DNA of 64,000 nucleotides, taken from a virus. Every line of letters begins with the position of its first letter. The first letter of the stretch is position 1. A program made the position numbers and the translations under genes. The stretch is taken from positions 32,001 through 96,000 of the IMG/VR virus record IMGVR_UViG_3300021961_000037. One strand, written 5' to 3'. The notes beneath the pieces are model-generated. The model made no database searches. It saw nothing but the letters and a program-made list of their open reading frames with translations, and was not told the DNA's origin. Shown one piece after another: positions 15,813-64,000 of the stretch.

Positions 15813-16946
15813 GTGACACGTCAACGACTATTCCTTGACATTTCATGTGTTGATGCGGCAAGGCAACGGATTCGCCATGTTTACGACACATTTGACACTG
15901 TTTGTGTTCAGTTTTCTGGCGGTAAAGATTCGACTGCCATTCTTTATCTGGCGAAAGAAGTTCACGAAGAACGAAATCTGGGTCCTGTAAAAGTTATTTT
16001 TCGTGACGAAGAGATGGTCAGTCCGTCGGTTGTTCGTTTCGTTGAGAAGGTAAAGAATTATGACTGGGTTGATATGGAGTGGTATTGCCTTCCGTCCGGT
16101 CAGGAGGTGTGGGTTCTTGGTCGCCGTGAGTACGCGATGCTCTGGTCTCAGGCACGGAAAGAAGACGGTCGGCTAGTAAGAGATATGCCCGAGTGGGCTA
16201 TCAGGGCTGAGCATTTCGGTTTGGATCCAGCAAAACCCTCGCCAAAACTTGTTGACCATTACACGATGCAGGGGAAGAAGGGGAGGACGGCGTTTATTAC
16301 TGGTGTGCGCGCCAATGAGTCAATGGTTCGCTACAGGTCGTGTGTTCAAAAGTTGCATGAGAACTATATAGTCGCACCGTTCATGATGCCGAAATCAATT
16401 CCCCTGAGGTTTGCAAAAGTTATTTACGACTGGACAACCGAAGATGTTATGAAGTTTCTGATTCACGAACATAACGCCGAGTACTGCGAATACTACGACC
16501 TTGCCGAAATGACTGGAAGTAATTCTCGTGTTGGCATTCCACTTCACTCTGTCGCTATTAGGAGGATTGGGGATGTTGTCGCCACGGAGCCAGAATTTTA
16601 CGATGACCTTGTCAGGTGTTTCCCGCAAATTGATGCGCAGAGGAGATATTGGAAGTATTTTGACATTGAGAGTTTGATTGCGAACTATGCGTCAAACGGA
16701 TGGGACGGAGTGCGTGATTGCATTGAAGATAACATGTTGACTCCGGGGCTGAAGCAGGATGCTATGAAGTTTGCTTCTGATTTTAGGAAGAAGCGCGCAG
16801 TTGACCCGTTTGGTTTTCCGCTTGAGTATTTGATTCGAACACTTTTGTTGAATGAGTTTCATCAATCAACCCCTACGCCAGTAGGTCCGAAAACAAGGGC
16901 ACACACAATGAGAATGAAGGCAATTGAGTCTGGGGAGGACTATTAG
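15813..16946 (+). CDS. PAPS-reductase-family PP-loop protein (IbrA-like)
   Basis: FSGGKDS PP-loop, DEE, WYCLP, GVRANESMVR, IYDW. Confidence 0.85.
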   Translation: MTRQRLFLDISCVDAARQRIRHVYDTFDTVCVQFSGGKDSTAILYLAKEVHEERNLGPVKVIFRDEEMVSPSVVRFVEKVKNYDWVDMEWYCLPSGQEVWVLGRREYAMLWSQARKEDGRLVRDMPEWAIRAEHFGLDPAKPSPKLVDHYTMQGKKGRTAFITGVRANESMVRYRSCVQKLHENYIVAPFMMPKSIPLRFAKVIYDWTTEDVMKFLIHEHNAEYCEYYDLAEMTGSNSRVGIPLHSVAIRRIGDVVATEPEFYDDLVRCFPQIDAQRRYWKYFDIESLIANYASNGWDGVRDCIEDNMLTPGLKQDAMKFASDFRKKRAVDPFGFPLEYLIRTLLLNEFHQSTPTPVGPKTRAHTMRMKAIESGEDY

Positions 16947-50757: not shown

Positions 50758-51696
50758 TTGCCAGGTCAATCACGGAACACGCAGGGCGGAAAATCGCTTG
50801 CAACGCAGTTGAGTCCTCGCAATATGCGGACTGGAACTGGTCAAGTGAACGCATTGTGGCAGGGTCAAGGTCCACCGTTTCTTGCTACTGGTGGTACTGG
50901 AACAACGCTGAACGGATTTAGGTATTTGGTATTCACAAGCAGCAGCACTCTTACCGTTACTGACGGTGGGACCGCAGAGGTTCTTGTTGTCGCTGGTGGC
51001 GGCGGTGGCGCATCAAACAACGGTGCTGGTGGTGGTGGAGGCGGTATCCGCACTAGTACTGGGCTTACTTATCAAAGTTTGGAATTCTCGTCCGGAACCT
51101 ATTCCGTGACGGTCGGGAGTGGCGGCACAGCACCTGGCGATGGAGTCGTAGGCAATGGAGGCAAGGGCGGTAATAGCAGCATTGTTCACAGCGGTGGCAC
51201 TCTTTCTGCAACTGGTGGCGGAGCAGGAGTTTACGTTGGCGATGGTGGTGATGGTGGTTCGGGTGGTGGCAGAAACCAATACAATGGTGGCAGTCGTGGC
51301 GGTTTAGGCAACCAAGGTGGCTACACGCCGTCAGAAGGAAATAATGGTTCTGCTGGCGGCTCACCGAATGGTATCGGTGGCGGAGGTGGTTTCAATGCTG
51401 CAACCAGTACCGGTCACGGAGCACAAGGTTTGACAGTAAATAACCTTGATTCCAACTTGTCAACGATTCTCGGTTATACGGTTATTTCGTCTGGTGGTGG
51501 TGGTTCTGGTAACTGCAACGCTGGTGGAACAAACGGCGCTGGTGGAACAGGTGCAGGAGGAGGCGGATACGGCAATAATGCTGGTGCTGGTGTTTCCTAT
51601 GGTTCTGGCGGAGGTGGAGGAAATAACTGTTTCGGCTCCGTCTATCACGGCGGTGTTGGAAAATCAGGTGTCGTTGTGGTGAGGTTCCCAGCGTGA
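50758..51696 (+). CDS. Gly-rich adhesin-like protein
   Basis: EVLVVAGGGG...GKSGVVVVRF. Confidence 0.8.
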   Translation: MPGQSRNTQGGKSLATQLSPRNMRTGTGQVNALWQGQGPPFLATGGTGTTLNGFRYLVFTSSSTLTVTDGGTAEVLVVAGGGGGASNNGAGGGGGGIRTSTGLTYQSLEFSSGTYSVTVGSGGTAPGDGVVGNGGKGGNSSIVHSGGTLSATGGGAGVYVGDGGDGGSGGGRNQYNGGSRGGLGNQGGYTPSEGNNGSAGGSPNGIGGGGGFNAATSTGHGAQGLTVNNLDSNLSTILGYTVISSGGGGSGNCNAGGTNGAGGTGAGGGGYGNNAGAGVSYGSGGGGGNNCFGSVYHGGVGKSGVVVVRFPA

Positions 51697-51989
51697 GCAA
51701 AATGTATGCCGAACTAGAAGGCTCTGTTGTTGTCAACATCATCGTTGCCGATGAATCATTTGTGAATAGTCAAGAAAATCCAGAACGATTTGTTGAATAC
51801 ACGGAGCAAAATCCAGCATTCATAGACGGAGATTATGTTGGAGGCTACTTCTATGCGCCACAGCCGTATCCGTCGTGGAGCAGGAACGGCGCTGGGTTGT
51901 GGGTTGCTCCAGTTGAACGTCCTCAGTATGCCGATTACTGGGATGAGGAAAATCAGCAGTGGGTTTTGTTAACTGAACTTCCCGACTAA
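51693..51989 (+). CDS. Small partner of Gly-rich protein (homolog of 41295)
   Basis: APQPYPSW, WVAPVERP, WDEENQQW. Confidence 0.75.
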   Translation: MSKMYAELEGSVVVNIIVADESFVNSQENPERFVEYTEQNPAFIDGDYVGGYFYAPQPYPSWSRNGAGLWVAPVERPQYADYWDEENQQWVLLTELPD

Positions 51990-51998
51990 CATGTATTT

Positions 51999-52532
51999 GT
52001 GCTTCAATTATTCGAAGACCTATTAGACCCGGATTATGCAAAAACTATTGAAAAAACAATGCTGTCAAACGCATTCCCATACTATTTCTTCGCCGACATT
52101 GATTATGGGAAAGGCAATGATGTTTATAACTTTGGATTTTCCCACACATTCGTTGACCAGTTTGCCGAATCACGAAGTGATTTTTTAGAACTTGTTTTGC
52201 CTGTTGCTTTTGCAATCGGTGATGCACTTGATCTGAAACTTACGCAACTTATACGAATTCGTGGGGTTATGTTGACACCAATTGGCATCGGATACAACCA
52301 TGTCCGACATACGGACTTGGCCAGTGACCCAGACTCATTGACTGCCGTGTACTATGTGAACGATTCGGATGGGGCGACCACCATATACAACGGAGAAGAT
52401 GTAGTGAGTGTCAATCCAAAGCAAAACAGTGCTGTCGTATTTGATACACATATGGAACATCATGGTGCAAAACCCGTAAAAACAGCATCACGGGTGGTTT
52501 TGAATATAAACTTCAGAGGTGAACCACAATGA
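51999..52532 (+). CDS. 2OG-Fe(II) oxygenase
   Basis: HTD, YYVNDSDG, distal H, RVVLNIN. Confidence 0.85.
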   Translation: MLQLFEDLLDPDYAKTIEKTMLSNAFPYYFFADIDYGKGNDVYNFGFSHTFVDQFAESRSDFLELVLPVAFAIGDALDLKLTQLIRIRGVMLTPIGIGYNHVRHTDLASDPDSLTAVYYVNDSDGATTIYNGEDVVSVNPKQNSAVVFDTHMEHHGAKPVKTASRVVLNINFRGEPQ

Positions 52533-53143
52533 CTTCCAAACCCATTATTGAGCAGTGGTTCCCTAAACCTTTATATATTGTGAATGACTTCATGGTCGAT
52601 GAGTTGGTGATGTATAAAAAATGGTTATACGAACTGTTTTCTTTAAATGATGACATGAAGAGGACGGAAGAATTAAATGTAAATAGCACGCATAACATGA
52701 CAACTCTTCATACGCAGGATATTTTCAGGAACTTGTCAAACGAGATAACGAAGAATGCAACTCAATTCGTGAGAATGCTCGGGTATTCTGGCGACCTTTT
52801 CATTAACAACATGTGGGCTAATCATGTTGTCAAGGGTGAATACTTATTCCCCCACAACCATCCGAACAGCATGTTGAGCGGCGCCTACTATGTTGAGTCT
52901 GACCACCCCGAAGATGTAATCAAATTTTACGATAATCCCATGAACATGCTTCCTGCGCCAGACGAGTACACATCACTTAGTTACGATTATTGTGCATACA
53001 GATGCCAGCCTGGAAGACTGATTCTCTTTAAGAGCGATTTCATTCATGGCTGCCCTGCCCTAAAAGGGGAAAGCAAAATTGTGATGTCTTTCAATATTGG
53101 GTTTGTCGGTTCTTTTGATTTTGAGGTCACCAAACCCGCATAA
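52529..53143 (+). CDS. 2OG-Fe(II) oxygenase (TIGR02466-like)
   Basis: WAN, HNHPNSMLSGAYY, HG, MSFN. Confidence 0.85.
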   Translation: MTSKPIIEQWFPKPLYIVNDFMVDELVMYKKWLYELFSLNDDMKRTEELNVNSTHNMTTLHTQDIFRNLSNEITKNATQFVRMLGYSGDLFINNMWANHVVKGEYLFPHNHPNSMLSGAYYVESDHPEDVIKFYDNPMNMLPAPDEYTSLSYDYCAYRCQPGRLILFKSDFIHGCPALKGESKIVMSFNIGFVGSFDFEVTKPA

Positions 53144-53431: not shown

Positions 53432-55588
53432 ATGACAGTTCGCAGAATACGACTAAGACGAGATACTGCTTCGGCGTGGACCTCTGCTAACCCAACCCTT
53501 GCGCTTGGTGAAATTGCATGGGAGTCGGACACATCCAAGATAAAAATAGGTGACGGTACTACTGCATGGACTTCCCTTGCCTATTACAATGCCTCACTCA
53601 ACAGCATTGGCGATGTTACGATTACTGACGTAGCCAACGGCGACTTTTTGCGTTGGAACGGTTCGGCATGGATTAATGACGCCGTAAACCTGTCAACGGA
53701 CACGGTCGGCGATTTTGTCCAATCCCTTGTGGCGGGTACTGGTGTTACCGTTTCCAATAACAGTGGAGAAGCAGCCACACCAACAATTCAAATTGGGCAA
53801 GCCGTCGGCACGACAGACAATGTAACTTTCAATACCGTCACCGCCGATCTCACCGGTGATGTAACCGGAAATGCAGACACCGCAACAACTCTAGAGACGG
53901 CAAGAACAATCTCGCTCGGCGGGGACCTGAGCGGCTCAGCATCGTTTGACGGTTCAGCAGACATAACGATTACCGCCACGATAAGTGCCGACTCAACAGT
54001 CCTTGGCACTGATACAACTGGAGATTACGTTGAGTCACTTGTCGCAGGTACTGGCGTAACTCTCACAAACAACACAGGCGAGGGGGCAACCCCTACGGTT
54101 GCAATCGGCCAAGCAGTCGAAACCACAAGCGATGTCACATTCAATACCGTCACCGCCGACTTGACGGGCAACGCCGACACTGCGACGACCCTTGAGACTG
54201 CTCGCACCATCTCGCTTGGTGGAGATTTGTCGGGCTCAGCATCATTTGATGGCTCGTCCGACGTCACAATAACTGCAACCATCGGTGCTGACTCTGTTGC
54301 CCTGGGTACCGACACGACTGGAAACTATGTTTCCGATGTAACTGGCGGAACAGGCGTAACGGTAACACATACTCCGGGTGAAGGTTCGAGCCCGTCAGTT
54401 GCCATTGGTCAGGCTGTTGGAACTGCAGATGATGTCACATTCAATACGGTGACTGCAGATTTGACTGGCGATGTCACAGGCAATGCTGACACAGCAACCA
54501 CACTTGAAACCGCCAGAACAATTTCTCTCGGTGGTGACCTTTCGGGGTCTGCCTCGTTTAACGGTTCTGCAGATGTCACAATCACGGCGACGATTGGCGC
54601 TGACTCGGTTGCACTTGGCACTGACACAACTGGCGACTACGTTGGTTCGCTCGTTGCTGGCACGGGTGTCACCTTGTCCAACAACTCTGGTGAGGGAGCC
54701 ACACCAACGGTCGCCATCGGTCAGTCGGTAGGAACATCCGATAGCCCAACCTTTGCTGGAGCGACATTGGATGCAGTACAAGTTGGAATCACGGCAGCGG
54801 GAGAGATTGACACCGCCTCGGGCAACTTGACCATTGACTCTGCTGGTGGCACGGTAACCGTTGACGACAATTTGGTTGTAACAGGAGATTTGACGGTTTC
54901 GGGAACGACCACAACGGTCAACACCGAAACTATCAACCTTGCCGACAATATCATCACCCTAAACAGCAATGAAACTGGTACTCCGAGTCAGAATGCCGGT
55001 CTTGAAGTAGAGCGTGGAACATCGGCAAATGTTGAGTTGCGCTGGAACGAGACAAGCGATAAATGGGAATTGACAGAAGATGGAAGCACCTATTACGACA
55101 TTGCGACAGAATCCTATGTTGATGCGCAGTCCATTGCTTCACTTGATGATGTCGGCGATGTCACGATTACCTCTGCGGCTTCGGGCGAGTTCCTCAAGTG
55201 GAACGGCTCGGCGTGGGTAAATGATTCAATTCCAACAATCAACACGCTTGATGATGTCGGCGACGTCACGATTACCTCGGCGGCTTCGGGTGAGTTCCTT
55301 AAGTGGAACGGTAGTGCATGGGTAAACGATTCAATTCCGACAATCAACACGCTTGATGACGTCGGCGACGTAACGATTACATCGGCAGCGTCTGGCGACT
55401 TTCTCAAGTGGAATGGTTCTGCGTGGGTCAATGACCCAATTAACCTCGGCACGGACACCACTGGCAACTATATGGTCAATGTTTCTGCCGGAGACGGAAT
55501 AAATGTTTCACACACACAGGGTGAGGGTTCAACAGCAACAATATCCGCAAGGGATACTTTGGTAAGGTTCTACATGGAGGTCATCTGA
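53432..55588 (+). CDS. Long stalk fibre: Mtd-type N-domain + same repeats as giant fibre
   Basis: RIRLRRDTASAWTSANPTLALGE; five TDT(T/V)G repeats; ends TLVRFYMEVI. Confidence 0.85.
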   Translation: MTVRRIRLRRDTASAWTSANPTLALGEIAWESDTSKIKIGDGTTAWTSLAYYNASLNSIGDVTITDVANGDFLRWNGSAWINDAVNLSTDTVGDFVQSLVAGTGVTVSNNSGEAATPTIQIGQAVGTTDNVTFNTVTADLTGDVTGNADTATTLETARTISLGGDLSGSASFDGSADITITATISADSTVLGTDTTGDYVESLVAGTGVTLTNNTGEGATPTVAIGQAVETTSDVTFNTVTADLTGNADTATTLETARTISLGGDLSGSASFDGSSDVTITATIGADSVALGTDTTGNYVSDVTGGTGVTVTHTPGEGSSPSVAIGQAVGTADDVTFNTVTADLTGDVTGNADTATTLETARTISLGGDLSGSASFNGSADVTITATIGADSVALGTDTTGDYVGSLVAGTGVTLSNNSGEGATPTVAIGQSVGTSDSPTFAGATLDAVQVGITAAGEIDTASGNLTIDSAGGTVTVDDNLVVTGDLTVSGTTTTVNTETINLADNIITLNSNETGTPSQNAGLEVERGTSANVELRWNETSDKWELTEDGSTYYDIATESYVDAQSIASLDDVGDVTITSAASGEFLKWNGSAWVNDSIPTINTLDDVGDVTITSAASGEFLKWNGSAWVNDSIPTINTLDDVGDVTITSAASGDFLKWNGSAWVNDPINLGTDTTGNYMVNVSAGDGINVSHTQGEGSTATISARDTLVRFYMEVI
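55142..55435 (+). repeat. Coding tandem repeat, ~3 x 105 bp (LDDVGDVTITSAASG.FLKWNGSAWVND..)
   Basis: Copies at 55142, 55247 and 55352 with high DNA identity. Confidence 0.85.
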
Positions 55589-55589
55589 T

Positions 55590-55952
55590 ATGTCATTGAC
55601 ACAAAAACGACTGGTTGGTCCAACCCAACTCACGACGACGACAAGCACGGTCCTATACACCGTGCCGCAAAGCACGACGACCATCGTGAAGCAGATTATC
55701 CTCTGCAACACGACTGGTTCTGCAGTAACCGTGACGCTGGTTTGCAAGCCGTTGAACGTCGCTCAGGCTTCTTCGCAGAACTTCTTCAACACCCTGTCGG
55801 TTGGGGCAAACGAAACATTGACCTTCCAAACCAACTTGGTTCTGACAAACAACGGAAGCACAGCAAACGCAACGAACAGTGACCAAATCATTGGTTCCGC
55901 AAGTGCAAACACCGCCATCAACATCATCATGAACGGAGTCGAAGAAGCGTAA
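55590..55952 (+). CDS. ~115-aa adaptor (cassette 5)
   Basis: RLVGPTQL, IVKQIILCN, GAN shared with 41959/45970. Confidence 0.75.
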   Translation: MSLTQKRLVGPTQLTTTTSTVLYTVPQSTTTIVKQIILCNTTGSAVTVTLVCKPLNVAQASSQNFFNTLSVGANETLTFQTNLVLTNNGSTANATNSDQIIGSASANTAINIIMNGVEEA

Positions 55953-56689
55953 TGGTCGCTAGTTTTGTTCGCCTGAACAACTCGTCACTTTCGACAGCAG
56001 AGTCAACATCAAGCATTTCTGGCTCGCTGGTGAATTTGGCAAGTTATCTGAACCTTCCAGACCCTGTCTATGGGACTGGAGCGGATGGCGACGCAACCAT
56101 TTCGGCTGACACCACGCTGACAAGCGACAAGTTCTACAAGAACCTCACGATTAACGCCAACATAAAACTAAACCCAGGCGGGTACAGAATATTCGTACAG
56201 AATGTTTTGACCCTAAACAGCGGTTCGGAGATTGGCTACACCACTGGATTTTCCACGGCTGGGACTCTCGCTCAAGGCGGAGCAACAAATACGGCAGTTA
56301 CGCACAGCCTTGGTGGTTCTAGTGGCGCACAGACGGCGACTGCGCCAACGGCCGCCCTTGGTGGTTCTGCGTACTACCAGCAGCCCCTACAAGCGATTCG
56401 TGGCTGGGCGGTAACAGCAGCCTCAACTACTCCGACGTTCTTGCGTGGTGGTGCTGGCGGCTCGTCTGGCGCTGGTGGCGGAGTTGTTCTTATTTCGGCT
56501 CGCTATATCACCGTTTCTTCGGGTACTGCGTATTTCAAGGCGCCTGGAACTGCTGGTTCCGGTGGCGGTGGTGGCGGGGTCATTCTTGTTGTTTCCTCTG
56601 CGTCGGTACTTAATGCAAGTGTTTCCACTGATGTAACTGGAGGAACTGGCGCATCGGCTGGCACGGTGAACTACATGCAGGTGGCGTGA
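55952..56689 (+). CDS. Gly-rich tip protein, second type
   Basis: YGTGADGDATIS..TTL..DKFY.NLT...IFV; paralog of the next gene. Confidence 0.7.
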   Translation: MVASFVRLNNSSLSTAESTSSISGSLVNLASYLNLPDPVYGTGADGDATISADTTLTSDKFYKNLTINANIKLNPGGYRIFVQNVLTLNSGSEIGYTTGFSTAGTLAQGGATNTAVTHSLGGSSGAQTATAPTAALGGSAYYQQPLQAIRGWAVTAASTTPTFLRGGAGGSSGAGGGVVLISARYITVSSGTAYFKAPGTAGSGGGGGGVILVVSSASVLNASVSTDVTGGTGASAGTVNYMQVA

Positions 56690-56690
56690 C

Positions 56691-57767
56691 ATGGCATTTG
56701 AGAGGCTTGGAGCAGACAGGAATCCCGTACAGAAGACGGGAACCGACAAATTGTTCGGTGCTGGCAGCGACGGAACAGTAACCATCTCCACGAACACGTC
56801 GCTTTCACGCGACATGTATTACGCCAACCTCACTGTGAACTCTGGAATCACGCTTTTTACCAACGGATTCAAGATTTTTGTTAGCGGGAACTTGGTAAAC
56901 GACGGCACAATAGGAATGCCTACTGGAACAGCACAGACGACTTCGGTCATGGCAGGAACGACCATGACGAGAATTGACGGTAATGCTGGGTATGTTTCGG
57001 GCGATGCCTTGTCGGGAACAATGACGATTGCCGAGGTCCGTGACATTGAAGCGCTTGTCACGGGCGTAATGCAAAAAGGTGCCACGCGAAGGGTGTGGTG
57101 GTCTGGTGCTACTGGAACTGCTGGCACTAGCGGAACCGCAAACCCCGGTGGTGGCGGAAATGCAACTGCTGGTACTGCGGGAACTGGTGGTTCGGCAGGT
57201 CAGGGCGGTGGCTCCGTTGTCGTTCTCGCCAAGTCAATTAGTGGGTCTGGAACATTTGTGAGCGAAGGAACTGCTGGAACTTCGGGAAATCCAGGAACCG
57301 CTGGAAGCAACGCACCGGGAAACCCAGGGCATAACCCCGGCGGGCATGCTGGCGCACATAATCCTGGCGGTCATGCACAAGGACATAACCCCGGCGGAAC
57401 TGGCCATAACCCACCCGGTCACTTCCATCACCCCGGTCACCATCAGGCGCCGAATTGCGGAGTCCATGAAGTTTGGGGCTGCTCGCATCATCACCCCGGT
57501 CACCACAACCCCGCGCACCAACACACAAACCCTGGAAACTCCTTCTCACATCCAGGAAACCCATTCCACTACTCACATCCAGGAAACCCATTCCATTACA
57601 GTCACCCCGGCAACCCGTTCCACAACCCATCTTATTCTGGTGGCACTGCCAACCCAGGAAATGCAGGAAACCCAGGAAATGCTGGAAGTCTCGTTGTTTT
57701 GACCCGAGGAATCACTACCCATGTCGCAACCTCCAACTTGACATACGTGGAGGACCTAGATGACTAA
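56691..57767 (+). CDS. Gly-rich tip protein with His/Pro/Asn/Gly hairpin insert
   Basis: FGAGSDGTVTIS..L.RDMYY.NLT; 25 His within 57321-57629. Confidence 0.8.
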   Translation: MAFERLGADRNPVQKTGTDKLFGAGSDGTVTISTNTSLSRDMYYANLTVNSGITLFTNGFKIFVSGNLVNDGTIGMPTGTAQTTSVMAGTTMTRIDGNAGYVSGDALSGTMTIAEVRDIEALVTGVMQKGATRRVWWSGATGTAGTSGTANPGGGGNATAGTAGTGGSAGQGGGSVVVLAKSISGSGTFVSEGTAGTSGNPGTAGSNAPGNPGHNPGGHAGAHNPGGHAQGHNPGGTGHNPPGHFHHPGHHQAPNCGVHEVWGCSHHHPGHHNPAHQHTNPGNSFSHPGNPFHYSHPGNPFHYSHPGNPFHNPSYSGGTANPGNAGNPGNAGSLVVLTRGITTHVATSNLTYVEDLDD

Positions 57768-58068
57768 TATCGACTATAATGGTAATGTCAACAGTGCAGT
57801 AACAAACGCAAGTTATTGGAGGATACCTAGGATGCCATACGATTTTTCAAGCCTTTCAGCAGATGACGTTGCACAGGCAAAAGCCCGTGTAAAAAAGGAA
57901 CTTGAGCGACAGATGTACGAGGCAACCCTCAAACTGGAACTCAACCCCGCGACATATGACTACGATGCCCACACCATTCCGGAAGACGAGTTTGCGCCGG
58001 GATATGCGTACAAACTGCAGATTTCTGCATGTTTGAGCCAAATTGCCTTCATTAATGGCATGGAGTAA
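57760..58068 (+). CDS. Small partner protein
   Basis: Overlaps the end of the His-rich gene. Confidence 0.6.
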   Translation: MTNIDYNGNVNSAVTNASYWRIPRMPYDFSSLSADDVAQAKARVKKELERQMYEATLKLELNPATYDYDAHTIPEDEFAPGYAYKLQISACLSQIAFINGME

Positions 58069-58078
58069 ACCTCTGGTT

Positions 58079-58087
58079 TGCTAGTCT
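58079..58087 (+). promoter_or_regulatory. Extended -10 TGC-TAGTCT, probable leaderless promoter of the enzyme operon
   Basis: TGn-TAnnnT ending 6 nt before ATG 58094; no SD. Confidence 0.4.
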
Positions 58088-58093
58088 TTTTGC

Positions 58094-58696
58094 ATGGACC
58101 ATACAGAACTAGCGCCTTGCCTTGTCTTGTTCGAGGACGTTTTCAAGCCCGGTAACTTCATTGAGTTGCTTGAGGCTGAATGTCAACAGCAGTGGGGGTA
58201 TCTGTCGTGGTACCTCACAACCGTTGGGCAGGGTCAAACACGGGTTGAGTACAGGTCATCTCTTGCGTGTGAACTTGGGGCATTGGGTCAACCGCTAAAT
58301 GAAATAGCGGAACCGCGAATAATGCCGCTAGCAGAAAAATGGCACGACATTCACAATGACCTGCAAAAGTGTATATGGTCGTATAGAAACATGTACGACA
58401 TTGACGTAAAAGAAGACGAAGGAATGACGGTGCTCAAGTACAGCAAGGGTGCAGAGTACCGAGGACATGTTGACCACGCTCCGTCAAACCAAAGAGTTTT
58501 TAGCATCGTTGCGTTCGCAAATGACAACTTTGACGGAGGTGAATTGACATTCCCGATATTTGATGTGACAGTAAAGCCAAAGGCTGGAAGTGCGGTTTTG
58601 TTTCCTTCAAACTTCCCGTATTTCCACTACGCGCAGGCTGTCGGTTCAACGAACAACACAGACACCAAGTACTCATTTGTAACTTGGTTTAGGTAG
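58094..58696 (+). CDS. 2OG-Fe(II) oxygenase, prolyl-4-hydroxylase-like
   Basis: LKY..G.EY..HVD, FDGGEL.F, FPS...FH, KYSFVTW. Confidence 0.9.
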   Translation: MDHTELAPCLVLFEDVFKPGNFIELLEAECQQQWGYLSWYLTTVGQGQTRVEYRSSLACELGALGQPLNEIAEPRIMPLAEKWHDIHNDLQKCIWSYRNMYDIDVKEDEGMTVLKYSKGAEYRGHVDHAPSNQRVFSIVAFANDNFDGGELTFPIFDVTVKPKAGSAVLFPSNFPYFHYAQAVGSTNNTDTKYSFVTWFR

Positions 58697-58700
58697 ACCG

Positions 58701-60164
58701 ATGCTGCCGAGGGTATGCATTGTAGGTTCTGGAACCTCCGGATTGGTTACCGCCTTGATGTTGAGGGCGTTTTTCCCCAACATCAAGGTGACGGTTATAT
58801 CTTCCAAAGACATCGGGATAATTGGTGTCGGCGAGGGTTCTACTGAGCACTGGCGTCATTTTTTTCAGCAGCCATGCGATATAGACGCTGGAGAGATGGT
58901 TGCCCGGTGCGCCGCCACCCATAAATACGGAATCAAATTTGAGGGCTGGACTACACACACTCCAATCTATTACCACAGCATTAGCGGAGAGGGTCACGGA
59001 CCAAATAACTTTAACGCTGTTTACTCTTTCGCCCACTTCAACGACTGGTTGCTAACGCCATCAATGATTCCACACCTGGATAATGACATGGTTGTAGATG
59101 ACGTCAAGCAACCCCATGGCACCACAAATCAGTTTCACTTTGACACTCATAAACTAAACAACTTTTTGACGTATCTTGCCGAAAAACGTGGCGTAACATT
59201 TGGCGACGGGAAGATTGTAAAAATTGACAGGAATTCAGAAACGGGTTTTATTGAGTCGGTAACAACTGACACAAACATTAAGTGCGAGGCAGATTTCTTC
59301 GTTGATGCAAGCGGATTTGCAAGAGTGCTGATGAGTAAACTTGTTGAAAACGATGAGTTTGTCAGTTACAGAAAATACCTGCCGTGCGACTCAGCAGCCG
59401 TGTTCCAGACGGAATCTGACCCATCTGGGAAAATCCACCCATATACGAGGGCTCGCGCGATGCCGCATGGCTGGATGTGGGAAATACCGACACAGGAGCG
59501 CAGAGGAAACGGCTATGTATTTGCCTCAGATTTCTGCTCCGACGAGCAGGCAGTCAAGGAACTGTCCGAGGCTCATGGTAGGGACATAGAGCCGGCAAGA
59601 ATAATTAGATTCAAGTCTGGCTACTACAAGCACGGTATTGCATTTAACTGTGCGGCTGTCGGTCTTTCTAGTTCATTTGTGGAACCGCTTGAGGCGACCG
59701 CAATAAGCACCAGCATTCAGCAATCACGCATGATTGCGGCAATTTTGCCGACCTTCATGCGTGGCAATAAGGCACAAACAAAGAACTATCAGCAACGCTA
59801 CGAAAGTTTGCTTGAAAATATTGTCACGATGATTTCTCTCCACTACATCTCGGATAGAAATGATTCAGAGATGTGGAAGGCGCAACAACATGCCGAACTT
59901 CCGGAAACACTGAAGGTGCTCCTCGAATTGTGGAAGGAGAGAATGCCCGAAAAATACGATGTTCCGCATTTCGGGTATGAACTGTTTCTTTCAGAGCATC
60001 TTTGGCATGTTGCACAGGGTCAAGGAGTTCTTGATAAGTCTGTTGCCCTGGACCAATTAAACGCCTACTGCTCACATGACCCGTGTGCAAAAATTTTCTC
60101 CTCCAAAAAACTGCAGGCAGCAGCAACAAGGAAAATTGACCATGCGCTTCTCTATAAGGCGTAA
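58701..60164 (+). CDS. Flavin-dependent (tryptophan) halogenase
   Basis: GSGTSG, GVGEGS, ATHKYGI (catalytic Lys), HFD, WMWEIP, FVEPLEAT. Confidence 0.92.
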   Translation: MLPRVCIVGSGTSGLVTALMLRAFFPNIKVTVISSKDIGIIGVGEGSTEHWRHFFQQPCDIDAGEMVARCAATHKYGIKFEGWTTHTPIYYHSISGEGHGPNNFNAVYSFAHFNDWLLTPSMIPHLDNDMVVDDVKQPHGTTNQFHFDTHKLNNFLTYLAEKRGVTFGDGKIVKIDRNSETGFIESVTTDTNIKCEADFFVDASGFARVLMSKLVENDEFVSYRKYLPCDSAAVFQTESDPSGKIHPYTRARAMPHGWMWEIPTQERRGNGYVFASDFCSDEQAVKELSEAHGRDIEPARIIRFKSGYYKHGIAFNCAAVGLSSSFVEPLEATAISTSIQQSRMIAAILPTFMRGNKAQTKNYQQRYESLLENIVTMISLHYISDRNDSEMWKAQQHAELPETLKVLLELWKERMPEKYDVPHFGYELFLSEHLWHVAQGQGVLDKSVALDQLNAYCSHDPCAKIFSSKKLQAAATRKIDHALLYKA

Positions 60165-61002
60165 ATCGCCAACGGTTAAGCCTGGAATCTGGGAAAACCT
60201 TCCAGTCCCAAAACCAAACCAGTTATTTGCCGCCCCTGTTGACAATCGTTTGTGGCATCCGAAATTGGCGATTAGACCATCTCGCTCCAAAACACCTGAA
60301 TGGTTTAAGGATATTCCGCAAGGCGAGGCGAGCCTCAAGCGATGCTACGGGGTTGCAGACTATCTAAGAACTGGATACGTGGTTCCGATGTGGGCGACGT
60401 TGGACGTAAGAATGCCCCTAAATAAATTGGATAAAAGATGGGAAGCACGTTTTGATATACCAGCGTCCCATCTATTTACCGCAGAGATAGCAACCGACCT
60501 TTCCGAGCAAGACAATAACTACTACTTTAGTTATGAATCATTGATGCGAAATCAATTTCCGATTCACCAAACGGGGAGTGAGTGCCCGGTTGCAAAACAA
60601 AAAAACCGCGAGTCTTCATACCTAAAATTACCAAGTCCCTGGGTGGTGAGAACTGCGCCCGGATGGTCCTCCCTCTTCCTGCCAACCCTCTGGGAGCCAA
60701 ATGATGACTATGAGGTTCTTGGAGCCGTGGTGCATACGGATTACTATCCGAACGCCAACTGTGTAATAAACATAAAGACAAACAGACCGCTAAGGATTGA
60801 GGAGGGAACAATCATGCAACACATAATCCCCTTCAAGCGAGACGCATCAATCTTGGAGACAGAGGTAATACGAGGAGACCAAACCGCCCATACACTGTTG
60901 AGGGATACTGGATTCGGTCCAGTTTTCACAACAAAAGAAGACACGCACGGCGGGTACAAAAAAGAACAACGCAGAATGGATGGATTGGTTTCTGATGTAT
61001 AG
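60142..61002 (+). CDS. Hypothetical protein (DUF6065-like)
   Basis: KRC.GV.D...GYVVP, TAPGWSSLF, VVHTD, IEEGT..Q.IPFKR. Confidence 0.65.
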   Translation: MRFSIRRKSPTVKPGIWENLPVPKPNQLFAAPVDNRLWHPKLAIRPSRSKTPEWFKDIPQGEASLKRCYGVADYLRTGYVVPMWATLDVRMPLNKLDKRWEARFDIPASHLFTAEIATDLSEQDNNYYFSYESLMRNQFPIHQTGSECPVAKQKNRESSYLKLPSPWVVRTAPGWSSLFLPTLWEPNDDYEVLGAVVHTDYYPNANCVINIKTNRPLRIEEGTIMQHIIPFKRDASILETEVIRGDQTAHTLLRDTGFGPVFTTKEDTHGGYKKEQRRMDGLVSDV

Positions 61003-61447
61003 AGTCATATTTTGCCCTCAAGAAAAACCAGTTGAAGATGCCTACGACATGGCAAAAGAGTGGGGGTTGTCCATACAGCACGGTGACTCGGCGCGCACCG
61101 AGGACATGGAGTTTGACAGGACGGAAGTGCAAGTTCTCTCCATTCCAATTCAGCGCGGATTTGATGCGGAAAGAATTGAGTGTTTGGTCAATATGCCGGT
61201 GTCGGTAAAGTACTCAAACGATTGGGACGACGTTTCTGATTACACATTTCTACTGCGCCCAACTGGTATGCGTGTCGGCAAAACCAACTGGGGTGTCCCA
61301 TCGATACTTATGGACAAACATAGGGCGGTAATGAACATTGCCGTTAGTTTCCCTGGCTCATACGAACTTGTCTCTGTCAAGGATGGAGTAGATAGAGAAA
61401 TATCCGAGTTTATAGCGATGGAGCGCGAAGGGGAATATCCAGAGTGA
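60995..61447 (+). CDS. Hypothetical protein
   Basis: ORF overlapping both neighbours in the enzyme operon. Confidence 0.65.
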   Translation: MYRVIFCPQEKPVEDAYDMAKEWGLSIQHGDSARTEDMEFDRTEVQVLSIPIQRGFDAERIECLVNMPVSVKYSNDWDDVSDYTFLLRPTGMRVGKTNWGVPSILMDKHRAVMNIAVSFPGSYELVSVKDGVDREISEFIAMEREGEYPE

Positions 61448-62151
61448 TTGAATTTATCGGTCACAAATCAACACACATAGCAGTAGTCCCAGACATAATT
61501 CCTCCTGACTTGTGCAATGGCTTGATTGATGCATGCAAGCGCGACTGGAATTCTTTGTTTTACCAAGGCCCGACACTTTCTGGTGTGGATACATCAATTA
61601 AGTACACGATGGATTTTGACTTCAGCGGGAAACAAGCACAGGAAAAAGGTTGTGATTACGACCTTTACAAAAATTACGAAGACAGAATCACGCAATGCCT
61701 GTGGACCGCAGTATCTCTTTACGTTGAGGCGTATTCAGAAATGCGGGCTGCCCCAGGATTGTGGGATACCGGATATCGTCTTCAGACCTACAAGCAAGGA
61801 ACTGGATATTATCGGTCGCACCACGACGGCGCGCCTTGGGACCCAGAACCGACAAGTCTTCGCGTGTTGGGTGTAGTGATGTATTTGAATACTGTTGAGC
61901 GTGGAGGAGAAACCGGCTTCCCTATCCACGACCTCAAAGTAAAGGCTAATGCTGGCTCAATAGCCCTTTTCCCAGCATCTTGGACACATCCTCATCAGTC
62001 ATGTGTTCCTGTTTCTTGCGACAAATGGATAATTAGCACCTTCATCGTATCTAATCGACGCCAGCCGACAATTAACGAACCAAGCCAACAAGTTCCAGTT
62101 ACGGTCATTGACACCAATCCAGAGAATCAGGGAAATGAGGAGGGAACATGA
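61444..62151 (+). CDS. 2OG-Fe(II) oxygenase, P4H-like
   Basis: HHD, YLN...GGETGF, FPASWTHPH, KWII. Confidence 0.9.
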   Translation: MIEFIGHKSTHIAVVPDIIPPDLCNGLIDACKRDWNSLFYQGPTLSGVDTSIKYTMDFDFSGKQAQEKGCDYDLYKNYEDRITQCLWTAVSLYVEAYSEMRAAPGLWDTGYRLQTYKQGTGYYRSHHDGAPWDPEPTSLRVLGVVMYLNTVERGGETGFPIHDLKVKANAGSIALFPASWTHPHQSCVPVSCDKWIISTFIVSNRRQPTINEPSQQVPVTVIDTNPENQGNEEGT

Positions 62152-62798
62152 AATCCAAGTTCCCCCTAGTCATAAAGCAACTTGTTCCAAGCGCTGAAGT
62201 CCGAAAATTCATATCCGACACACAAGGCAGTCAAAGAACAGTCAAAAGCACTGGGTGGGGTCGTGCCACCAATGACATACCGATAATAAAAGACATGTCA
62301 ACCCAAACTATTGGTGGTTCGTTTTGGGACATTATGTATTCTTGCGCCAAGGAGCACTTTGGTGAAACGGCGCTCCCTTCATACTGGAAGTGGTCTCGCT
62401 ATTCGCCAAAATACGGGGCGCCGAATATTCCACCACACATTGACATAAATGCGTGTACTTACACAATTGATTTGCAGTTGATGGGGGATGTTGAGTGGGA
62501 GATATTTGTTGAAGGGACACCATACACAATGCAAGACGGTGACGCCCTTTTATACCTTGGCTCTGAGCAAATGCATTGGCGACCCAAATACCCGAATCGC
62601 AACTATAAATCATTCTTGGAAATGTGTTTTATTCATTTTGTTGAACCCGGGCACTGGTATCACGAAAATGGTCCAAAGTGGATAGATTCAGATGATGTGA
62701 GATTGCCGTGGAGAGAGAAAATGATGCATTTGCTGCCAAAATATAAGTGCGACACATATCAGCCATTTGAGGACCCAACTGAATTTCCCGGGTACTAG
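62148..62798 (+). CDS. 2OG-Fe(II) oxygenase
   Basis: PPHID..CTY, GDALLYLG...HWR, FIHF. Confidence 0.85.
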   Translation: MKSKFPLVIKQLVPSAEVRKFISDTQGSQRTVKSTGWGRATNDIPIIKDMSTQTIGGSFWDIMYSCAKEHFGETALPSYWKWSRYSPKYGAPNIPPHIDINACTYTIDLQLMGDVEWEIFVEGTPYTMQDGDALLYLGSEQMHWRPKYPNRNYKSFLEMCFIHFVEPGHWYHENGPKWIDSDDVRLPWREKMMHLLPKYKCDTYQPFEDPTEFPGY

Positions 62799-62807
62799 GA
62801 TTACCAG

Positions 62808-63560
62808 ATGGCAAATAACAAAATCACTGTTTACTGGTCCCCATCACACGCACTGGGAAGCCAGTATGAGTACAATCACCTCTACCCGTTCCCTGACTCT
62901 CTATATCAGGAGTTGGCACCGCTCAAGGCTGACCTAAAAGAAAACCGGGATGATTTTCTGAGGTGTCCAGCAGTAGGCAACAAAATGAAGAAAACATTTG
63001 TGTTTAGGTCCTCCACAGATACGCATGTGAAGATTGTTGACGGACAGTACGTATCGTATTGGGTCAACTCGGAAGACGACAAACGGCGTCATCAAACCAC
63101 GGTTGAACTGCTTCATTCCCCAACTCTTTTGAATCATTTTTTGTTGAACTACCTACATCCGGTTATTTTTTTTACGGATGTTGATTCATTGATTATGTCT
63201 CTTACTCCGCCGTATTTTCACAAAACAACCCATTCGCAATACGGTGCAATCGTTCCTGGGGAGTTTGACATTGCTTCATGGTTTCGACCAATAAATTTTG
63301 AATTTCAACTATGGGAGGGAGTTGACGAACTAATCGTTCCTGCTGGCGAGCCGTTGGGGTATGTGGATTTCCATACGAGCAGTCAGGTTGAATTGCGCAG
63401 GTTTAACATGACTCAAAATTTAAAGAAGATATCAAGTTCGCTTGTTCACGTCTCGCCTCACCGAAGGTATGCAAAGTTGTCTGAGAAGTACAAGTTGTTC
63501 CGCAATGCCCGCATATCCCAAGGAATCCTCAGAGAGATACGCGACAACCTTGTTGGCTAG
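62808..63560 (+). CDS. Hypothetical protein (distantly similar to 60142)
   Basis: CPAV, PGEFDIASWFRP.N, GEPL.Y. Confidence 0.65.
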   Translation: MANNKITVYWSPSHALGSQYEYNHLYPFPDSLYQELAPLKADLKENRDDFLRCPAVGNKMKKTFVFRSSTDTHVKIVDGQYVSYWVNSEDDKRRHQTTVELLHSPTLLNHFLLNYLHPVIFFTDVDSLIMSLTPPYFHKTTHSQYGAIVPGEFDIASWFRPINFEFQLWEGVDELIVPAGEPLGYVDFHTSSQVELRRFNMTQNLKKISSSLVHVSPHRRYAKLSEKYKLFRNARISQGILREIRDNLVG

Positions 63561-63581
63561 CGCAACATTGCTGAAATTGCA

Positions 63582-63740
63582 CTACCACTTACCGATGGGG
63601 CATTTTGCATCTGGCAGTCGAGTTTTTATTTTCATAAAACATCCGCATTCCTTGCATTGAACTGTGGGCTTAAAAAGCCTGGGACATTGGTTACAAATCA
63701 TCAGTCTTTTCATGTGGATTGGGGTGTTGTTTTGTTCCAC
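63582..63740 (-). CDS. Small Cys-rich protein (DUF6171-like; not in ORF track)
   Basis: MEQNNTPIHMKRLMICNQCPRLFKPTVQCKECGCFMKIKTRLPDAKCPIGKW. Confidence 0.8.
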   Translation of the reverse strand: MEQNNTPIHMKRLMICNQCPRLFKPTVQCKECGCFMKIKTRLPDAKCPIGKW

Positions 63741-63767
63741 TGGTTTGCCTTCTTGTTGTAAATGTTT

Positions 63768-64000
63768 TTAGCACTCGCCAAACGGGATTTTTGCGCTTTG
63801 CCGTATTCTTGAAATAACAGGTTCTACGGTGTTCCATTTAATGTTAGTCCCCCATGTTGAAGATATTGTGTATCTCGTGCATCCACCTATTTGGGTGACG
63901 CCGTGCAAGTGGTTGTTATCGGGGTCGTGCGCAAAAACCTTGCCTTTTTGGGGAATCATTGATTTTTCAAAAAATGGGTAAAATGTTTCTCCCCCAGAGT
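63768..64000 (-). CDS. C-terminal part of a 2OG-Fe(II) oxygenase (start outside window)
   Basis: SGGETFYP...HLHGVT...RYTISS.W. Confidence 0.8.
   Translation of the reverse strand, partial: SGGETFYPFFEKSMIPQKGKVFAHDPDNNHLHGVTQIGGCTRYTISSTWGTNIKWNTVEPVISRIRQSAKIPFGEC

Follow-up and report, generated by a model that had tools for sequence, protein, structure and literature searches.

We analysed a 64,000-nucleotide stretch of viral DNA (hereafter, the window), bases 32001-96000 of the 114,094-bp linear IMG/VR record IMGVR_UViG_3300021961_000037 (CheckV completeness 78%), in which the gene for a histidine-rich protein, TIP (56691), lies behind tail-fibre genes and ahead of a set of enzyme genes (Table 1; genes are named by their window coordinates). 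The main finding is that, across the related uncultured viruses sampled, this His-rich, beta-helical, fibre-type protein is strictly coupled to an enzyme core composed of a flavin-dependent halogenase (58701), the protein that accompanies it (60142, hereafter the partner) and a 2-oxoglutarate (2OG) oxygenase of the prolyl 4-hydroxylase (P4H) type (58094). With a confidence that falls slightly short of even, we favour the reading that the cassette enzymes tailor the virion by modifying the His-rich loop of TIP, to which they would be functionally coupled; what we infer, beyond the coupling, is that TIP serves as the substrate, which of its residues are modified and that it is located in the virion. 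The gene layout, a His/Pro/Asn gene and one small gene and then a PF13640 oxygenase and a PF04820 halogenase, had been described in an initial annotation made from the sequence, and our analysis recovered it as claimed.

The linkage was examined from both of its ends. A search with the partner family gave 185 viral stretches, from which the best 80 loci were fetched (33-74% identity), and a search with only GLY, the beta-helix paralogue encoded just upstream of TIP, gave 356 stretches, from which again the best 80 loci were fetched. The partner sampling comprised 43 lineages with at least 6 kb upstream, dereplicated at 95%, and the GLY sampling comprised lineages with at least 7 kb downstream, dereplicated at 95% (n = 30) or 80% (n = 16). 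Starting from the partner, the halogenase was present in 43/43 lineages and adjoined the partner in 41 of them, GLY was present in 41 and fused or split in the other two, and a protein of at least 300 amino acids (aa) with at least 5% His was encoded in 39. Starting from GLY, halogenase, partner and oxygenase were all found within 12 kb in every lineage at either dereplication level (30/30 and 16/16). This is the co-occurrence of enzyme set and tip across phages that the initial annotation had proposed to look for. Clustering of the open reading frames (ORFs) of the partner loci defined the core as (adaptor)-GLY-TIP-small helical protein-(p155)-oxygenase-halogenase-partner, with variable flanks; the whole block is kept in four viral contigs at 50-90% identity, and GLY is 49-91% identical across loci.

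Among 185,579 species genomes the partner was found in only 3 contigs of metagenome-assembled genomes, each with the whole cassette. A tblastn search of 50,697 GenBank phage records gave no match for GLY and only weak matches for the partner (S-RIM4 and Halorubrum viruses), so no cultured phage with the cassette was found. Around remote Gly-rich beta-helix relatives that have no His loops (L009-L014), none of the enzymes was encoded within 10 kb.

At least 8 gene arrangements keep the set together, among them one in which the enzyme block is inverted (L131-L135), one with the tip downstream of the enzymes (L076 and L088), one with a halogenase directly after the tip (L084 and L145) and several internal orders; the linkage is also kept in L147, L039 and L091. 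These arrangements bear on the explanation that the linkage is only historical or regulatory, the enzymes being late auxiliaries for 2-oxoglutarate/nitrogen signalling or nucleic-acid repair that hitch-hike in the structural module. Structural modules are syntenic within viral families, and an effect on 2OG levels or a part in DNA repair has been suggested for the 2OG oxygenases of cyanophages, which would suit that explanation; however, the linkage outlasts all these gene orders and the inversion, the flanks of the cassette vary freely while its core stays, and neither role suits a halogenase together with P4H-type enzymes. We consider it very unlikely.

The protein at the centre of the cassette, TIP, contains 26 His, 68 Gly, 25 Pro and 30 Asn, with 16 'NP' and 16 'PG' dipeptides. 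Its paralogue GLY was modelled as a beta-helix, for which Foldseek returned no match at E <= 0.001; the matches obtained with VIA-align, at Z about 8, were generic beta-helices (bactofilin, adhesin passengers and tailspikes), and GLY was therefore given no specific family. The N-terminal rungs and the C-terminal strands are common to both proteins, and TIP carries a loop of ~100 residues rich in His, Asn, Pro and Gly in place of the short Gly turn between the last rungs of GLY. All 74 distinct tips (74/74) have such a His-rich region, of 82-764 residues and composed of 20% His, 15% Gly, 9% Asn and 9% Pro. In these loops NP is the most enriched dipeptide (2.6-fold) and PP is depleted (0.28-fold); most Pro residues have Asn or His before them and Gly, His or Ala after them, and the top enriched motif among 53 dereplicated tips was (N/H)-P-(G/H/A). 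TIP is not collagen-like by Pfam, as it has no match to the G-X-Y repeats of PF01391, and a relative, the tip of L047, reaches only a sub-threshold score (20.9 against 27.2 bits). Loop length varies about ten-fold across the tip family, and the largest tip (L039:2984-6208) is 1074 aa long and includes 103 His, 119 Asn and 93 Pro.

GLY is not the only Gly-rich protein of the window that sits behind an adaptor. Three adaptor paralogues of about 115 aa (41959, 45970 and 55590) are each followed by a Gly-rich protein (31-34% Gly in 42294 and 46312), and a His-rich protein follows only the 55590 pair; these three pairs fit the repeated fibre-cassette layout described in the initial annotation.

The halogenase matched PF04820 with 329 bits against a cut-off of 21 over profile positions 1-448 of 458. 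The initial annotation had considered it intact, and the alignments bear this out: the GxGxxG flavin motif reads GSGTSG at residue 9, Lys75 aligns with the Lys in the 'TYKLA' stretch of 6nsd (the catalytic Lys, K79 in PrnA/RebH), and Glu328, within FVEPLE at 326, is the counterpart of the catalytic Glu (E346). The flavin motif is conserved in 58 relatives, in whose alignment Lys75 and Glu328 are invariant, and the WxWxIP motif is present as GWMWEIP at 257, of which only GW..EIP is conserved clade-wide, the second Trp being variable. Among proteins of solved structure, Trp halogenases are its best matches (6nsd, E 3e-59). In a FastTree phylogeny, midpoint-rooted and with support values not examined, the cassette halogenases form one clade, those of P-SSM2 and S-H38 are its sister and the pair of Syn9 lies further out. 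VirX1, the halogenase of cyanophage Syn10 (PDB 6qgm), shares its catalytic motifs and its viral origin with 58701 (phmmer E 6e-33) and is a distant relative with a large, open active site and a preference for iodination.

The oxygenase next to it, 58094, scored 49.6 bits against a cut-off of 27 for PF13640, and its H125-V-D127, H178 and K192 are conserved in 16 of 18 aligned relatives. When a profile of 58094 and 17 relatives was compared with the PDB, all 8 matches were protein prolyl 4-hydroxylases (E 5e-11 to 1e-4), including enzymes from Bacillus anthracis (3itq/5hv0), PBCV-1 (5c5t), Chlamydomonas (2jig) and human (C-P4H, 7zsc). The resemblance extends to the HxD...H triad and the distal Lys, and the candidate substrate loop is rich in X-Pro-Gly; on the other hand, the alignment is confined to the catalytic core, some 70 residues, 58094 has no peptide-binding domain, and the TIP loop is neither a G-X-Y collagen repeat nor poly-Pro. 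Hydroxylation of peptidyl Pro by 58094 is thus plausible, the sole indication being that its matches in the PDB are all P4Hs, and the hydroxylated NPG/HPG repeats proposed in the initial annotation are plausible, given a P4H-type oxygenase near the tip and (N/H)-P-(G/H/A) as the top loop motif.

The enzyme core has a cultured counterpart in the Syn9/Syn10-type cluster (Syn9 gp41-gp54 and gp60), where a halogenase also stands beside a gp43-type protein together with several tandem 2OG dioxygenases. There the two halogenases gp41 and gp42 precede gp43, which is homologous to the partner (hidden Markov model (HMM) E 4e-17; hhalign 97.7%), the tandem 2OG dioxygenases include homologues of 58094 (gp50) and of 62148 (gp54), and the cluster begins right after the fibre and Gly-rich genes gp32-gp39. 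As Syn9 holds halogenases, gp43 and dioxygenases, the enzyme core is of a known kind. The differences are that the Syn9 halogenases are 29% identical and fall outside the cassette clade, that no GLY or tip homologue was detected in Syn9 and that its publication draws no fibre link. The new element is the strict coupling of this core to the His-rich protein, and in the literature we found no paper that links the two. The closest parallel in logic comes from bacterial operons in which hydroxylases were proposed to modify co-encoded tail-collar or collagen-like proteins (Iyer, Abhiman, de Souza and Aravind 2010; PMC2938197). As here, the proposed substrates are neighbouring repetitive Gly-rich or fibre-type proteins; these operons are, however, cellular, contain sulfotransferases and lack a halogenase, and the likeness is one of logic.

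In the proposed mechanism, the window would contain a late, co-transcribed tail-fibre module of an uncultured myovirus whose last structural gene is 56691, inherited as a unit with the P4H-type oxygenase, the halogenase, the gp43/DUF6065-like partner to which the halogenase is constantly tied and additional oxygenases. Before virions are assembled in the infected cell, these enzymes would modify the loop of 56691 and possibly other fibre proteins nearby. Pro residues within (N/H)-P-(G/H/A) motifs would be hydroxylated by the P4H-type enzyme. The halogenase, together with the partner, would use reduced flavin supplied by a reductase of the host, and its target would be an exposed side chain of the aromatic or imidazole type, on Tyr or His and not on Trp. 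No NRPS (nonribosomal peptide synthetase) condensation domain, ketosynthase or flavin reductase was detected in the 114-kb record, which upholds the statement of the initial annotation that NRPS and polyketide synthase (PKS) scaffold genes are lacking.

The choice of residue departs from the initial annotation, which had proposed a halogenated Trp in the CGVHEVWGC segment of the loop. This Trp is replaced in three of the four close orthologues that keep the halogenase, 28 of the 74 His-rich loops contain no Trp, and 3 tip proteins have none at all, so we rejected it as a conserved halogenation site. Since Trp is not conserved in the loops, the common halogenation target, if the tip is the substrate, would not be Trp; Tyr, which is found in all loops but one, or His is the candidate target. 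The Cys pair of the same segment was also rejected as a conserved feature, 53 of the 74 loops having no Cys.

MibH-type halogenases provide a precedent for action on ribosomal peptides. MibH itself (PDB 5uao) belongs to the same family as 58701 (E 2.5e-40), and the initial annotation had described the system as similar to ribosomally synthesized and post-translationally modified peptides (RiPPs). This comparison has to be reduced to an analogy: unlike RiPP halogenase systems, the cassette has no leader peptide, recognition element or protease and no cleavage, no such genes were found by Pfam or PHROG, and the candidate substrate is a folded, structural-type protein in which Trp is not conserved. 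The small proteins encoded after TIP (c5 family, p102) were rejected as RiPP-like precursors, as they are helical and have no conserved aromatic residue or Cys; the 102-aa member in the window may be a chaperone.

Several points weigh against modification of the tip. The complete co-occurrence in both samplings, the variety of arrangements, the tight operon and the lack of a scaffold gene give strong comparative support to the central claim of the initial annotation, that the enzymes are tied to the adjacent His-rich protein and are not free-standing auxiliaries, but the case is one of gene linkage and not of chemistry. We infer the virion location of 55952 and 56691 from their position behind fibre and adaptor genes and from a generic beta-helix fold. 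The Trp-free loops and tips described above count on the same side, a few tips contain only 2.8-4.9% His, and we know of no flavin halogenase that acts on protein His. In Syn9 the Gly-rich proteins gp36, gp38 and gp39 (22-35% Gly) contain only 2-4% His. It may be that all the loci come from a single broad group of viruses, in which structural modules are syntenic anyway. Finally, P-SSM2 and S-H38 carry lone related halogenases (35-37% identical), away from tip genes and with neither partner nor tip, and the published reading of dioxygenase-halogenase arrays is secondary metabolism (Iyer et al. 2010, on the 'remarkable' tandem dioxygenase/Trp-halogenase arrays of cyanophages such as Syn9, PMC2938197; a 2021 survey of jumbo phages, PMC7824862).

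These last two points also favour the explanation that the enzymes serve small-molecule chemistry, producing a halogenated and hydroxylated metabolite or altering a host compound, and that the fibre genes are mere neighbours. VirX1 halogenates many free aromatics in vitro, and typical tailoring enzymes, a cytochrome P450 or a GT1 glycosyltransferase, are encoded in some related loci. Against it, the record holds no scaffold gene for such a molecule, the enzymes are embedded in a structural operon and not in a stretch of variable auxiliary genes, the closest relatives of 58094 with solved structures are without exception protein hydroxylases, and within the cassette clade the enzymes never occur without a tip gene. 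The initial annotation had named enzymes independent of tip genes as grounds to abandon tip modification, and the lone P-SSM2 and S-H38 halogenases are the instances that we found. We regard the small-molecule explanation as unlikely.

A further explanation retains virion tailoring and places the main substrates elsewhere in the fibre region, in the Gly-rich tips or in an FN3 protein of the converging strand that has a run of nine Pro and 18 Cys. The seven 2OG-type genes at 52-67.5 kb lie amid several fibre-type genes, the poly-Pro run is a classic viral and plant P4H substrate, and the Syn9 cluster follows Gly-rich and not His-rich proteins, all of which speak for it. Nevertheless, the unit of FN3 protein, structural protein and DUF6171 protein and the poly-Pro run are present in a minority of the related loci, whereas the His-rich tip is nearly universal, and we consider this explanation quite unlikely.

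For about two decades no natural substrate has been known for phage halogenases of the Trp type (prnA-like genes and VirX1, the latter still without one) or for the many 2OG oxygenases of phages, and the proposals in the literature range from antibiotics to 2-oxoglutarate signalling and DNA repair. A halogenase, its partner and a P4H-type oxygenase tied to one His-rich fibre-type protein offer a concrete, unproven substrate candidate. It is doubtful, in our estimate, that the fullest version of the favoured reading holds, namely that a clade of uncultured aquatic myoviruses both hydroxylates and halogenates a His-packed loop of its tail-fibre tip, which would make TIP the first example of a halogenated virion protein and give viral flavin halogenases their first natural substrate. 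If so, loop modification may tune metal binding, stiffness or receptor contact; the halogenated His/Gly-rich proteins of polychaete jaws are a parallel for such tuning of loop properties. Enzymatic halogenation and hydroxylation would then join the known ways in which phages diversify receptor-binding structures, and the cassettes would be a source of protein-acting halogenases for biocatalysis.

Table 1. Features of the fibre and enzyme region, in window coordinates.
Feature	Coordinates	Strand	Evidence or remarks
2OG-Fe(II) oxygenase, PF13640, upstream of fibre gene	51999..52532	+	G000 84287-84517 match, E 2e-11; HTD...H pattern
2OG-Fe(II) oxygenase	52529..53143	+	PF13759; PHROG 81
718-aa repeat-built tail-fibre protein	53432..55588	+	PHROG tail-fibre/minor-tail families, E down to 9e-36
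120-aa 'adaptor' p120	55590..55952	+	PHROG 20100; HMM matches; found in most related loci
GLY, 245-aa beta-helix protein without His-rich loop	55952..56689	+	fold model, predicted local distance difference test (pLDDT) 84; generic beta-helix matches
TIP, 358-aa GLY paralogue with His/Asn/Pro/Gly loop	56691..57767	+	sequence comparison
His-rich loop of TIP, residues about 214-311	57330..57623	+	replaces short Gly turn of GLY
Cys256...Cys264 loop inside His-rich loop	57456-57482	+	lineage-specific
102-aa helical protein, 'c5' family	57760..58068	+	often two copies per cassette
P4H-type 2OG oxygenase	58094..58696	+	PF13640 E 8e-13; H125-x-D127, H178, K192
Flavin-dependent halogenase	58701..60164	+	PF04820 E 6e-98
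DUF6065-like/Syn9-gp43-like partner	60142..61002	+	start overlaps halogenase stop by 23 nucleotides; conserved Cys68
p155, about 150-aa core cassette protein, no known family	60995..61447 (155-aa ORF 60980-61447)	+	
2OG oxygenase	61444..62151	+	PF13640 E 2e-9, 38.6 bits; H126-x-D128
2OG-like protein, Syn9 gp54 homologue	62148..62798	+	PHROG 2954/3531; H97-x-D99...H143
Second, distant DUF6065-like protein	62808..63560	+	PHROG 17480/7084
52-aa Cys-rich DUF6171 protein	63582..63740	-	E 6e-7
251-aa PF13640 oxygenase, 3' part in window	63768..64000, runs to window-equivalent 64523	-	E 5e-6, 27.8 bits

The partner lies in an ORF spanning 60076-61002, with its true start most likely at 60142. The initial annotation had read it as one of two DUF6065-like proteins. 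Against PF19541 this ORF scored 13.6 bits (E 0.048) with a cut-off of 26.6, below the threshold for membership; the link runs only through P0025, a distant relative (28% identical) in which PF19541 is found, and through PHROG 7084, a family shared with 62808-63560, so that the partner is related to DUF6065 and the label itself is weak. The structure predicted for the partner reached pLDDT 62; the folds that Foldseek aligned to it, with E about 1e-4 and low TM-scores, are of the dUTPase-type beta kind and give a weak lead. For p155 the ESM Atlas gave nothing usable.

The two more oxygenases described in the initial annotation fared unequally: 61444 is a PF13640 member, 62148 is 2OG-like solely by PHROG 2954/3531 and its HxD...H pattern, and the p155 gene that precedes them is of neither the DUF6065 nor the oxygenase kind. 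The converging Cys-rich mini-protein (DUF6171) and PF13640 oxygenase were recovered on the minus strand as described. All five PF13640 genes of the record are found at 52-67.5 kb (window coordinates, partly past the window end) amid fibre genes, and the HxD/E...H pattern is present in all seven 2OG-type genes spread over the same interval. No Pfam match to JmjC was obtained for a counterpart of gp49, the JmjC/MINA-type member of the Syn9 cluster, among the scanned window genes, no dedicated JmjC search having been made. The two oxygenases at 51999-53143 are preceded by a Gly-rich tip set (50758-51989) and followed by the next fibre gene; oxygenases therefore bracket more than one fibre cassette.

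The virus is a myovirus: besides many consecutive fibre genes, the window encodes the large terminase (11691), tail sheath (20091) and baseplate wedge (28836). No GenBank phage matched the stretch in a megablast search. Along the plus-strand train from 53432 to 63560, neighbouring genes overlap or sit at most 25 nucleotides apart, and promoter- or terminator-like sites in the train were no more frequent than in shuffled sequence, the scans being at chance level. Their sole feature, at 58064-58082 in the 25-nucleotide spacer between the 57760 gene and 58094, was a T-run with a weak hairpin of 8 pairs, three of which are G-C; it may be an attenuator of transcription between the structural and the enzyme genes.

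Some related loci show additions to the cassette. A cytochrome P450 (E 1e-25) or a GT1 glycosyltransferase (E 1e-16) is encoded just downstream of the partner (L051:11719-12966 and L052:10995-12071), and P450 presence followed no pattern with tip Tyr content, as judged by eye only. One lineage (L085 and L092, at about 5.6-10 kb and 15-20 kb) carries two full GLY-TIP-oxygenase-halogenase sets in tandem, the second tip having 26% Gly and less His.

Beyond the window end, the FN3 protein with the nine-Pro run is encoded on the minus strand (L002:3557-4276, window-equivalent 65651-66370) in a unit that also comprises a structural protein, DUF6171 proteins and two oxygenases; its relatives keep Pro-rich linkers and many Cys, with a poly-Pro run that varies in length or is absent. 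Further on, downstream of a 1208-aa protein with no family match, are a VanY-type endolysin with a peptidoglycan-binding domain (L002:9275-10165) and an S8 subtilase (L002:11561-12979). Within the window, a PAPS-reductase-like gene (15813-16946; PHROG 2302, E 4e-78) is placed between the terminase and the tail genes.

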